From positions 1 through 35,600 of the forward strand of contig JAJRYS010000012.1 of assembly GCA_024275665.1 (NCBI GenBank): a DNA stretch of 35,600 nt, in the 5' to 3' direction. The stretch comes from an archaeon. GTDB taxonomy: Archaea > B1Sed10-29 > JAJRYS01. This document shows positions 6,817 through 30,382 of this stretch, piece after piece. The notes beneath the pieces were generated by a model. The model searched no databases and was not told the DNA's origin. It was given only the letters and a program-made list of their open reading frames with translations. The position numbers and the translations under genes are program-made. Each line of letters starts with the position of its first letter. The first letter of the stretch is position 1.

Positions 6817-6999
6817 TGGGTCCACCCGGATTTTCGTGGGGAGTTGCGCTTGCCCCAGCGATAGGCCGCTTCACGTGGCCTGCAGGGGTAGAGGGGGTGC
6901 AACCCCTCTTTCGAACCGGGGAGCTTCGCCATACTGCCAACAGCCATTGCTGTGGCTGTTGTCGTCAAGGCGACGTCCTAACCACTAGACCATGGACCC
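6817..6999 (-). tRNA. tRNA-Val(GAC) with two introns: 37/38 (6932-6962, 31 nt) and 59/60 (6831-6909, 79 nt)
   Basis: Acceptor GGGTCCA/TGGACCC-A73, anticodon arm TCGCC-TTGACG^T-GGCGA, T arm CCCGG-TTCGAA^T-CCGGG; BHB-like junctions; no encoded CCA. Confidence 0.9.
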
Positions 7000-7025: not shown

Positions 7026-7096
7026 TGGACTCGCTGGGAGTCGAACCCAGACTGCTAGCCTGCAAAGCTAGCGTGCTTCCATTACACCACGAGCCC
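7026..7096 (-). tRNA. tRNA-Ala(TGC), intronless
   Basis: GGGCTCG/CGAGTCC with G3:U70, CTAGC-TTTGCAG-GCTAG, CTGGG-TTCGACT-CCCAG. Confidence 0.95.
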
Positions 7097-7276: not shown

Positions 7277-8368
7277 ATGAGTAGTTTTCTTCATGAATTG
7301 ATTGAAAAAGAAACTCCTTTTGGAATAAAATTAACTTCTGATATTCTTTCTGATGAGGCAGAAGAAGTAAGAAACTTTTTCAAAACTTTTAGTCCAACTA
7401 ATTTTTCCAGAGAACCTTGGTTTTATTTTCATATTTCCCCAGAAGCTTCATTATCTCTTAAGTGGAAAATCGAATTAATAAAAAAGCTTTATTATATTTC
7501 AAATAATCAATTTGTTAAATTCATTTTTATTGATTATTATCTTAACGAGTTAGAATACTTGATTAGATTAAGCGTTAAGTACAAGCATTTTTATTCTGAA
7601 GTAAAAAAGGCTTATGATACTTCTGTTAAAGTAATGCTTGAAGGGATAATGAAGAATAATTGGGGCAATCTTCCTTTTATTGATAATAAAATATTCTTAA
7701 TCAAAGATATTAAAGAAAGTCATATGAGTCACAGGCCGCCAGAGTTTCCTTTTCGAGGGAAAACAATTTTATGGGCCTTTGAGACTAGTAAAAAAATTAA
7801 AGAGGTTAATATTGATGGAGTGTGTGGGATCTTACATGGAGGAGTTTTCCCTTCTTTTGTATTATCAAAAATCATAAGTAAACCTGTTCATCTTCTTCGT
7901 TTTTCTTTTTATTCAATGAAAGATACTTATCCAAAATTTATTGATCCTGCTCCAGTTGGAGAAAGGATCATTGTTGTTGATGATGTATATGGTAAAGGTC
8001 GAACGCTACAAATTGTTAGTGATTTTTTGAAAAAGTATGATAATGAAGTACTTACGACAGCTGTTTCTTTTAAACATACTTCAGAAGAAAAAATATACAA
8101 GCCTTCAATTCCTCCTAAATGGATTACGTTTCCACAGTCTCCTTATAGAAAGGAGATTTTATGGGAAGCTTACGGAAATTTATCACTAAAAATAGCTGAA
8201 GAGCTAGCTGCGTTTTTATTAGAATACTATCCAGAGGTGGCTTTTAGAATTTCGAAAACACCCACAAGTTATAAATATTTTGTGGATGAATTTCTCTCCT
8301 ATTTCTTGAAACAATTAAAAAGCATACTAAAAGTGAGGATCAGAACTAAAGATTTAAAGCAAAATTAA
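7277..8368 (+). CDS. AT-rich protein with a type I phosphoribosyltransferase domain and an unassigned N-terminal region
   Basis: GILHGG loop and IIVVDDVYGKGRTL PRPP-binding motif. Confidence 0.75.
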   Translation: MSSFLHELIEKETPFGIKLTSDILSDEAEEVRNFFKTFSPTNFSREPWFYFHISPEASLSLKWKIELIKKLYYISNNQFVKFIFIDYYLNELEYLIRLSVKYKHFYSEVKKAYDTSVKVMLEGIMKNNWGNLPFIDNKIFLIKDIKESHMSHRPPEFPFRGKTILWAFETSKKIKEVNIDGVCGILHGGVFPSFVLSKIISKPVHLLRFSFYSMKDTYPKFIDPAPVGERIIVVDDVYGKGRTLQIVSDFLKKYDNEVLTTAVSFKHTSEEKIYKPSIPPKWITFPQSPYRKEILWEAYGNLSLKIAEELAAFLLEYYPEVAFRISKTPTSYKYFVDEFLSYFLKQLKSILKVRIRTKDLKQN

Positions 8369-8377
8369 TTTTTGAAA

Positions 8378-8639
8378 AGCCACAGATGGGACTTGAACCC
8401 ACAACCTCCTGCTCTCTCAAACTGCTCCTGTTACTTGTTTTCCGCTGTGAAGCGGAAACCAGGCCACTTCAGCTTCAGCTGAACGTGGTCTTCAGATGTC
8501 GATTTGCGAACTGGGTAGTTCGCAAATTTGAAGACGCGTAGTCTTCAAATCTGGCTGTGGCAGTCGTACGAGGCAGGCGCTCTGCCATTGCTCCCACGAG
8601 CAAAGAAGTTTTGCTTCAGGCGAATTGAGCTACGGTGGC
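8378..8639 (-). tRNA. tRNA-Thr(CGT) with two introns: 15/16 (8588-8624, 37 nt) and 37/38 (8414-8566, 153 nt)
   Basis: Acceptor GCCACCG/CTGTGGC-U73 (one mismatch), D arm GCTC-AA^TGGCA-GAGC, CCTGC-CTCGTA^A-GCAGG, GTGGG-TTCAAGT-CCCAT; 72 nt after splicing; BHB central helices GCUC/GAGC and CUCG/UGAG. Confidence 0.9.
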
Positions 8640-8790
8640 ATAGATTGAGCTATTTTTACGAATAGGTTAATGTTTTTTTATTTAATTTAATATTTTAAGG
8701 CTTTTCTTGTTAGTGCTTTGCTTGGTTGAAACTTGTTAAACAATACAAATATATATCATAAAGAATACAAACGTATTAAAGGTGTTGGTA

Positions 8791-29940: not shown

Positions 29941-30011
29941 GAAAACTAACTACTAAGAACAAGAATTTAAAACCTGTTGCTTTGAACCTTTCCATGTTAA
30001 AAAACAGTGAA

Positions 30012-30273
30012 CGCGGAGGGCGAGATTTTCTCGCTGTCCAGCTGGCTTTTCCGCTGTTAAGCTGAACTAGTGCATGCGGCTTGAGCCGCGTGCGCTTAAG
30101 TGCCGGCTGGTTGCAGCCGTTCGAACTCGCGAGCCCCGAAGGGCACTGGCTTAGCAGGCTCGCCTCGCTCCGCCGCTCTTGGAAAAGCAGCGTGGGCGAA
30201 CCAGCGCAATACCATTGCACCTGCAAAGGTGCAAACCAAAGGGTTTGCCGTTTGCGGTCTATGCGACCTCCGC
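30012..30273 (-). tRNA. tRNA-Ser(GCT) with three introns: 15/16 (30215-30258, 44 nt), 30/31 (30159-30200, 42 nt), 59/60 (30026-30119, 94 nt)
   Basis: Spliced 82 nt: GCGGAGG/CCTCCGC-G73, CTGG^C-CTGCTAA-GCCAG, variable arm GCCC-TTCG-GGGC, GCGAG-TTCGAA^T-CTCGC; BHB helices GCAU/GUGC, CGCU/GGCG, UUCG/AGAA (one mismatch). Confidence 0.88.
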
Positions 30274-30382
30274 GCTTTTAGTATTGTAGTGTGCATGGTT
30301 TTAACCATGCGCGCTTTAGCGCCAGTCCGATAATGTCGGCTGTGCGGCCTCCGCGCTTTTAGTATTGTAGTGTGCATGGTTT
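30259..30382. repeat. Direct repeat of tRNA-Ser exon 1 plus upstream flank (30259-30301 and 30340-30382)
   Basis: 43 bp with 2 mismatches, 35 bp exact (30267-30301 = 30348-30382), offset 81. Confidence 0.92.

Follow-up and report, generated by a model that had tools for sequence, protein, structure and literature searches.

Introns of archaeal tRNA genes were given a length range of 11-129 nucleotides (nt) in a 2014 review (PMC4090602), and the way in which archaea acquire them is an unresolved question. Here, we describe an intron of a tRNA-Thr(CGT) gene which, with 153 nt, exceeds the range stated in that review. The gene lies on the minus strand of a 35,600-nt stretch of DNA (the window), which represents contig C2 in the assembly of a DPANN-type archaeon. 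A first-pass annotation, made from the letters of the window alone, had noted four hairpins in this intron and had suggested either a function of its own, possibly as a circular RNA, or a miniature palindromic mobile element. We consider it fairly likely that the 153-nt sequence is a spliced, functionless intron made from two repeat families, namely an intron core present in many copies and, nested within the intron, a palindromic repeat of 48 nt. An intron built from such repeats is probably selfish or neutral; it offers no indication of a new functional RNA and records the growth and spread of introns of this kind.

The closest precedent are the multi-copy 'transposed' introns of the Thermoproteales (Fujishima et al., 2010, as reported in PMC4090602 and PMC3239211), which imply recent gain at the DNA level and showed the spread of introns, not its mechanism. 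In comparison with the account given in these sources, the introns described here belong to a DPANN-type lineage and are much longer, they contain a conserved two-hairpin core inside position-specific flanks together with a second, nested repeat, and copies are also found outside of tRNA genes, next to the signal recognition particle (SRP) RNA and tRNA-Gly. A further parallel is provided by ARMAN-2 (Ca. Micrarchaeum), likewise an ultrasmall archaeon with many interrupted tRNAs, introns in the T-loop (59/60), relaxed bulge-helix-bulge (BHB) motifs and genes that are missed by tRNA finders (PMC3239211). The introns reported as tested in ARMAN-2 have 13 and 25 nt, compared to 153 nt here, and the splicing endonuclease described for this organism is a 387-aa three-unit epsilon-2 enzyme (PMC3239211), whereas only a 181-aa single-unit EndA was found in the present genome.

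The tRNA-Trp intron of Haloferax and other Euryarchaeota, which bears a box C/D guide, is also a long intron at position 37/38; it is described as excised and circularised and sets the precedent for introns that have a function of their own (PMC4090602; PMC3326292). Unlike this intron, the one studied here contains no box C or visible guide, resides in tRNA-Thr and is not conserved in the orthologues. In Caldiarchaeum subterraneum, intron gain and tRNA fragments have been tied to a mobile element in a tRNA-Thr gene (PMC3293823), and partial duplicates of tRNA ends similarly flank some of the modules found here and in relatives, as judged by eye. The Caldiarchaeum element is reported to comprise 1.8 kb and to code for a recombinase (PMC3293823), in contrast to the non-coding modules of 50-200 nt found here. 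Our search of the open-access literature yielded no paper on repeats of a palindromic or MITE-like type (MITE, miniature inverted-repeat transposable element) inside archaeal tRNA introns.

MITEs and PATEs (palindrome-associated transposable elements, which derive from IS200/IS605) are, like the palindrome pair described here, short non-coding hairpin units that occur in multiple copies, insert cleanly and are tolerated in the non-coding DNA of compact genomes. The 48-nt palindrome pair of the present intron is far smaller than typical MITEs, shows neither a target-site duplication nor a transposase partner, and its known sites are almost all located in tRNA introns or trailers. The locus differs from the described systems in its length, in a modular core that occupies three position classes as well as RNA-gene spacers, and in the nested palindrome pair with clean insertion sites. 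The genome offers clean material for the question of intron gain, with filled and empty versions of the 48-nt site in two tRNA-Thr and two tRNA-Val genes, and with one core distributed over D-loop, anticodon-loop and T-loop introns and the flanks of SRP RNA and tRNA-Gly.

The tRNA-Thr(CGT) gene and its introns

The gene (8378..8639, minus strand) was recognized by reading. Its acceptor stem, GCCACCG/CTGTGGC, contains a single C6:T67 mismatch; the discriminator is T at 8378 and is followed by a T-run; the D stem is GCTC/GAGC, the anticodon stem CCTGC/GCAGG and the T arm GTGGG-TTCAAGT-CCCAT. The unspliced gene was called neither by ARAGORN nor by the Rfam tRNA model at its gathering score, and the Infernal tRNA model gave only a partial match of 19 bits (8378-8473). 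After removal of two introns in silico (8624-8588 and 8566-8414), ARAGORN called a tRNA-Thr(cgt) of 72 nt. The first of these, an intron of about 37 nt in the D-loop (8588..8624, minus strand, with boundaries uncertain by 1-2 nt), has a relaxed splice motif with a GCTC/GAGC helix and AA↓T bulges.

The 153-nt intron (8414..8566, minus strand) interrupts the tRNA between positions 37 and 38, and a normal anticodon loop and cloverleaf are obtained once it is removed: the part of the loop upstream of the intron, CT-CGT-A, ends at 8567, and A38 is found at 8413. By eye, a canonical hBHBh' motif can be drawn, in which the central 4-bp helix is formed by CTCG (nt 32-35) and TGAG (8419-8416), TA↓C and AG↓A represent the two bulges of 3 nt, and the outer helix is formed by GACTGC (8565-8560) and GCAGTT (8425-8420). 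The 3' splice-site strand (8414..8425, minus strand) accordingly consists of the GCAGTT of the outer helix, the TGAG of the central helix and the AG of the bulge. Pair probabilities calculated with ViennaRNA were 0.92-1.0 for the outer helix and 0.98-0.99 for the anticodon stem. The program favoured a central helix shifted by two (CUC/GAG), since the 3' end of the intron reads GAGAG, and gave the BHB register itself a probability of about 0; this register is therefore a reading of the sequence and no prediction of the energy model. The first-pass annotation had placed the 37/38 intron at exactly these coordinates, and the clean BHB that it described can be formed, with well-supported flanking helices and the caveat just given for the central register; the second intron, in the D-loop, had been overlooked. 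On the plus strand, a 51-aa open reading frame (ORF; 8386-8541) extends in antisense direction through the 3' exon of the tRNA and the intron. This ORF did not match any Pfam family and is in all likelihood spurious.

A second tRNA-Thr(CGT) gene is present on contig C9. Alignment of the two genes revealed a continuous identical stretch, which begins in the 3' part of the D-loop intron, spans exon 2 and the 37/38 intron and reaches into exon 3. The only exceptions are one base and an exact 48-nt gap in the C9 gene opposite 8550-8503. In contrast, the two genes have different acceptor stems and T arms and share little of their D-loop introns (that of the C9 gene is a different and longer intron at the same place), so that the shared middle part looks like the result of conversion between paralogs. 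The acceptor stem of the C9 gene, GCCTCGG, is that of the orthologues in relatives, while the stem of the window gene is odd and mismatched. Since genes for tRNA-Thr(GGT) and tRNA-Thr(TGT) are present elsewhere in the genome, the window gene represents an extra copy.

In the window, the 48-nt insertion is flanked by CAG (8553-8551) on one side and TCG (8502-8500) on the other. It splits the 3' arm of a hairpin, CGACTG-CCACAGC-CAGTCG, which is intact in the C9 gene and upstream of tRNA-Gly and which carries a compensatory change in the D-loop intron of tRNA-Gln. The probability of the splice-site helix in silico increases from 0.62-0.68 in the C9 gene without the insert to 0.92-1.0 in the window gene, apparently because the insertion breaks this competing hairpin.

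We also read nine tRNA-Thr(CGT) genes of relatives, five of which have a 37/38 intron of about 40-57 nt and four of which have none. The orthologous introns show no likeness to the 153-nt intron, nor to each other beyond close kin, and the content of the 153-nt intron is therefore lineage-specific. An absence of common structure beyond the BHB among orthologous introns had been named beforehand in the first-pass annotation as a finding that would speak against its proposal, and nothing beyond the BHB was found to be shared. One of the orthologous introns (about 43 nt; G007, locus L052, ~1521-1563) contains, by eye, a pair of ATGATGA ... CTGA motifs, which may be a minimal box C/D or K-turn.

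Two repeat families in one intron

Folded alone, the 153-nt intron has a minimum free energy (MFE) of -58.1 kcal/mol, compared to a mean of -36.7 kcal/mol for shuffled sequences (z = -5.48, none of 200 shuffles as good). The four hairpins reported for the intron appear in this fold and also in the MFE fold of the whole pre-tRNA (z = -4.42), and the two overlapping sister hairpins among them are indeed perfect stems, of 10 and 10/11 bp, that overlap by two bases. A genome-wide scan for perfect hairpins (stem of at least 9, loop of 3-8, loop variants counted as separate records) gave 59 records, compared to 21 in one shuffle. The four hairpins had been described as a single design; they proved to belong to two unrelated repeat families joined inside one intron. 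Hairpins 1 and 2 form the 48-nt palindrome pair (8503..8550, minus strand; hairpin 1 at 8550-8526 and hairpin 2 at 8527-8502), and hairpins 3 and 4 belong to a shared intron core (8434..8497, minus strand). The AC-TAC stem-loop junction, which had been regarded as a shared feature of the sister hairpins, is peculiar to the window copy, and the loops differ elsewhere.

The source genome (G000) is represented by an assembly of 634 kb in 37 contigs with 39% G+C and a completeness of about 91%; the genomes of relatives comprise 0.3-1.3 Mb. Copies of the core were searched with a covariance model (R1, built from ten copies, applied to 18 genomes of the order) and with BLAST on 31 genomes, and copies of the palindrome pair with a second covariance model (R2, applied to 151 genomes). 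Genomes with relevant matches are a sister genus in the same family (G003), a member of another family (G011) and a genome from outside the phylum (G058). Identities of the host tRNAs given below are by-eye readings unless the gene was called by ARAGORN.

The core of the window intron was detected by BLAST, by an nhmmer profile and by model R1 (83.6 bits). It consists of the motif CTGAAGA, hairpin X (8488-8464), CCTGG (8463-8459), hairpin Y (8458-8439) and an A-rich tail. In the source genome, BLAST found a 54-nt stretch of the core at seven other sites with 93-98% identity, with one diverged copy at 88%; the nhmmer profile gave eight copies at E <= 2e-12, and R1 gave 12 copies at E <= 5e-7 among the 20 matches listed. 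Nine of the 12 R1 copies are located, by reading, in tRNA introns of at least eight tRNA genes. These copies occupy the anticodon loop (37/38) of both tRNA-Thr(CGT) genes, the D-loop of tRNA-Gln(CTG) and the T-loops of Asn(GTT), His(GTG), Gln(CTG), two further tRNA-like genes and the gene at 30275-30010 of the window. One copy immediately precedes tRNA-Gly(GCC) and is bordered on either side by a 25-nt stretch that is present twice, and two occupy the 240-nt spacer that separates the SRP RNA (Rfam, C9:4931-5199, 119.5 bits) from a tRNA-Thr gene. The flanks of the core vary according to the position class, while its inner 54 nt are nearly constant, and a near-identical core thus occurs in different isoacceptors and at canonical as well as non-canonical positions. 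The arrangement at the SRP RNA (C9:4931-5436; L005:896-1401) comprises the SRP RNA, then without a gap three tandem intron-like modules, one of them with a palindrome pair, and then tRNA-Thr(CGT); sequences of the intron family therefore also exist outside of tRNA genes.

Among the genomes of the order, convincing R1 matches were obtained only in G003 (n=3). BLAST with the T-loop intron gave seven sites in G003 and, among the 29 other genomes of the phylum, a single marginal match in G028 (E 0.008). The G003 copies are T-loop introns, and their hairpins X and Y are alike among themselves and unlike those of the source genome. Copies that are homogeneous within a genome and divergent between genera fit bursts from a master copy or conversion. 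R1 matches in G004, G010, G012 and G002 (E 5e-4 to 1e-2) were rejected as false, since by eye they lie in coding DNA.

An exact-pattern search with the TTGCGAAC...GTTCGCAA stem found four sites of the palindrome in the source genome, while 30 further genomes from the phylum gave no match; the structure model R2 was needed for diverged relatives. The four sites are the window intron, the spacer between SRP RNA and tRNA on C9, the T-loop intron of tRNA-Val(TAC) on C14 and a T-loop intron on C28. The C9 copy interrupts a sequence that resembles a T-loop-type intron, and the C28 site is a single hairpin, i.e., a half copy, within a long T-loop intron. The C14 intron of tRNA-Val(TAC) equals the corresponding intron of tRNA-Val(GAC) with an exact 48-nt insertion. 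A diverged palindrome pair is present in the 138-nt intron of tRNA-Trp, which brings the copies in the source genome to four full and one half. The hairpin unit is thus found in three other tRNA introns, in a spacer and in three other genomes, contrary to the possibility, raised beforehand, that it occurs nowhere else.

The five copies align at 72% column identity. Their ends read ATTTG/CAAAT in two of the five and are close variants in the rest; as the whole unit is palindromic, these ends are indistinguishable from the stems. R2 scored the window copy at 65.3 bits on the plus strand and 40.4 bits on the minus strand, and each full copy scored 20-28 bits higher on one of the strands, which for two of the four is the orientation of the host transcript and for the other two the opposite one.

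Across the phylum, R2 detected eight sites in G011, one in G003 and none in the 28 others, and its application to the 151 relatives at E <= 0.001 added only G058, with two sites. Seven of the eight G011 sites are located 17-70 nt after a tRNA called by ARAGORN. They lie inside a module of about 130 nt with four hairpins, the closing stem of which resembles, by eye, the start of the T-loop intron of tRNA-Val; as the palindrome pair is part of this larger repeated module, the seven sites are not independent. One of the G058 sites belongs to a class II tRNA gene, where it lies in an apparent D-loop intron. The second site (C8:47898-47945, L111) precedes by about 20 nt an ORF with the look of a ribosomal protein gene and is the only copy seen without a link to a stable-RNA gene.

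Selfish repeats or functional RNA modules

The observations on both repeat families suggest how the intron may have been formed. The 153-nt sequence would be an ordinary, protein-spliced BHB intron that interrupts a duplicated tRNA-Thr(CGT) gene at position 37/38. Its first layer would be a family intron of about 105 nt, composed of a 5' hairpin, CTGAAGA, hairpin X, CCTGG, hairpin Y and the A-rich tail, and such copies are nearly identical within the genome, which suggests that they have spread recently or have undergone gene conversion. In a second layer, the 48-nt palindrome pair would have been inserted into the 5' hairpin, leaving the splice-site helices undisturbed. The endonuclease would cut the pre-tRNA at the two bulges, the exons would be joined and RtcB would circularise the intron, the RNA of which would have no role of its own. 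The hairpins might persist because tight, self-folded inserts spare the BHB and the fold of the tRNA, and both repeats because introns and the flanks of RNA genes are among the few tolerant sites of a dense genome. For hairpins 1 and 2, the earlier suggestion of a miniature palindromic mobile element is favoured, in view of two exact 48-nt insertions and the presence of copies in both orientations.

The circularisation of excised introns has been reported for other archaea (PMC3326292), and genes for the corresponding enzymes are encoded in the source genome. RtcB was identified with PF01139 (E = 1e-172); the match (C29:5794-7086) contains one in-frame TAG. EndA was identified with PF01974 (E = 3e-32) as a single-unit ORF of 181 aa (C37:1404-1949, minus strand; L014). 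Its closest solved structures are 5x89_A and 1a79_A, which we take to be the Methanopyrus and Methanocaldococcus enzymes. The only other PF01974 match (E = 0.059), a 189-aa ORF, was considered as a candidate for a second endonuclease subunit and was rejected, as it does not look like an EndA.

Several findings weigh against the view of the intron as a functionless assembly of DNA repeats. No target-site duplication was found in either of the filled/empty pairs, which show a bare 48-nt indel with differing flanks. With regard to a transposase partner, the Y1 transposase TnpA (PF01797) gave no match and the TnpB zinc ribbon (PF07282) remained below the cut-off in this assembly of about 91% completeness, and a link to IS200/IS605 was accordingly dropped. 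All 12 core copies and all five palindrome sites in the source genome are located in or beside stable-RNA genes, and such a confinement could mean a role or a mobility at the RNA level, not mere tolerance. In the 15-copy alignment of the core, 85.7% of the cells are paired compared to 74.9% in shuffles (0 of 500 reached this level), both sides have changed in 10 of 17 pairs, and partners slid by 1-3 columns pair in 39-52%; the alignment was fitted to model R1, and this fit and the relatedness of the copies inflate the pairing figures. For the palindrome, 86.5% of the cells pair compared to 80.0% in shuffles and two-sided changes were seen in 5 of 18 pairs, and the covariation counts for both families rest on few, related sequences. 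Diverged core copies keep YTRAG before hairpin X, the base of X, CTGG after it and the A-rich tail, while their stems change; single-stranded motifs kept beside changing stems are the pattern expected of a functional RNA. Moreover, the best G003 copy agrees fully with the T-loop version of the source genome over the first ~27 bases, and the next two copies agree at 89-93%, while the strand that pairs with this segment differs. A single-unit EndA of about 177 aa has been tied to few, canonical introns and a strict specificity, and the 387-aa three-unit enzyme to many non-canonical introns, according to the account in PMC3239211; a lone EndA of 181 aa thus sits oddly with the many non-canonical, relaxed introns found here. 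Either a subunit of EndA is unassembled or undetected, or this genome encodes a single-unit enzyme of broad specificity. Finally, a search of sequencing runs returned no RNA run with the intron and only two runs with DNA of the contig (word share of 0.09 and 0.06).

Part of these findings would be explained if the hairpin modules were RNA-level elements that ride on tRNA processing and are released from introns or as 3' trailers. They might then be structured RNAs or platforms for proteins, or might spread by reverse splicing and copying back into DNA. This explanation is unlikely in our judgement, yet it has to be taken seriously: besides the covariation in both families and the conserved unpaired motifs beside variable stems, the link to stable-RNA genes is nearly exclusive in four genomes and comprises all copies in the source genome, seven of the eight G011 sites follow tRNAs, one of the two G058 sites lies in the apparent D-loop intron of a class II tRNA, and the insertion in the window gene raises the probability of the splice-site helix in silico. 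However, the palindrome pair occurs in both orientations and its loops are not conserved, the G011 sites are not independent, and one G058 copy is located upstream of a protein-coding ORF. The orthologous introns are unrelated, no known RNA motif was matched, and the copies are homogenised within a genome, as is the case for recent amplification or conversion. A more specific version is that both modules are undescribed small structured elements, specialised for the stable-RNA units of DPANN archaea, which are processed out and bind a protein or spread via RNA. We put this forward only as a speculative and rather unlikely possibility; if it were true, such elements would be a long-sought agent of archaeal tRNA intron gain.

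A conventional role as a guide RNA is very improbable. The intron would in this case contain a box C/D guide that directs 2'-O-methylation via L7Ae, Nop5 and fibrillarin. Genes for fibrillarin and L7Ae are indeed encoded, CTGA, the sequence of box D, occurs three times in the intron, and the G007 orthologue contains the ATGATGA ... CTGA pair seen by eye. Nevertheless, no box C (RUGAUGA) was found by reading of the 153 nt; the nearest sequences, TTGAAGA and CTGAAGA, are part of a perfect stem or immediately precede hairpin X and have no GA partner on the opposite side. Rfam at the gathering score detected only tRNA-Ala in the window, and at E <= 10 no family, including C/D families, was found within the intron in the region 8300-8700 except for the partial tRNA match. 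A snoR117 CD-box match (E 8.6, 12.9 bits compared to a gathering score of 42) lies outside of the intron at 8335-8410. At E <= 1, nothing was found at the tRNA-Trp locus or the C28 locus, and the G011 module gave only tRNA together with sub-threshold matches to Plastid-ycf2 (E 0.17) and an sR45 CD-box (E 0.93). The suggestion in the first-pass annotation that the intron has its own function, be it as a guide, as a set of protein-binding sites or as a functional circle, therefore received no positive support from the box C reading, from Rfam or from the orthologues, which are unrelated.

The palindromes might also be sites for a dimeric protein at the DNA level, such as an operator or a recombinase or nuclease site, with an incidental location in an intron. 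The perfect inverted repeats of 9-10 bp with variable spacers of 4-6 nt, the conservation of stems while loops vary, and the independence of orientation agree with this. We nevertheless regard it as quite improbable, as there are only four or five sites in the genome, none of them in the promoter region of a protein gene, compensatory changes in the stems would alter a sequence-specific site, and no candidate protein was identified.

Two further readings of the core motif were tried by eye and rejected. The hammerhead ribozyme has the core CUGANGA, which CTGAAGA fits, though no GAA follows hairpin X. For a K-turn, the GA on the opposite strand was not found.

Further tRNA genes and module sites

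ARAGORN, run with introns allowed, called only six tRNA genes across the whole assembly, and the Infernal tRNA model gave 34 matches at E <= 10, of which many were incomplete or had low scores. Every tRNA locus that was read contains one to three introns in the D-loop, anticodon loop or T-loop; the interrupted loci comprise Thr (GGT, TGT and two CGT), Val (GAC and TAC), Asn, Gln, Lys (CTT and TTT), His, Gly, Trp and class II. The reading of these loci shows that the small number of calls results from the introns. With six ARAGORN tRNAs in a genome of about 91% completeness, annotation pipelines can be expected to under-call tRNAs in such lineages.

Two further interrupted genes are located in the window. 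The tRNA-Val(GAC) gene (6860..6999, minus strand) was recognized by reading and has a weak Infernal match at 6894-6999; its two introns, at 37/38 and in the T-loop, have lengths of about 30 and about 80 nt, respectively. It lies directly downstream of the called tRNA-Ala (7026-7096) and was overlooked both by ARAGORN and by Rfam at the gathering score. A tRNA-like, multiply interrupted gene (30010..30275, minus strand) has by eye an acceptor stem GCGGAGG/CCTCCGC and carries a diverged core in its T-loop intron at 30102-30045 (R1 E = 4.8e-7).

Duplicated tRNA ends were observed at several module sites. In the source genome, direct repeats of 25-26 nt, consisting of the leader and the first bases of the tRNA, flank modules at C14:2755-2880 and C28:17500-17600 (L018 and L019), which precede tRNA-Gly(GCC) and a class II tRNA; the repeats look like partial gene duplications that occurred during insertion. 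In G011, copies of the module with four hairpins (about 130 nt) are present behind at least seven different tRNA genes (L090, L093, L095, L097, L099, L101 and L103), and at L093 a second copy of the tRNA 3' end is present about 190 nt downstream. Duplicated 3' ends are likewise found after tRNA-Thr in G003 (L054) and G004 (L056), an arrangement that resembles the duplication of att sites by an integrating element. At the tRNA-Trp(CCA) locus of the source genome (C26:8193-8423, L088), GATGA-like motifs are present in the 138-nt intron.

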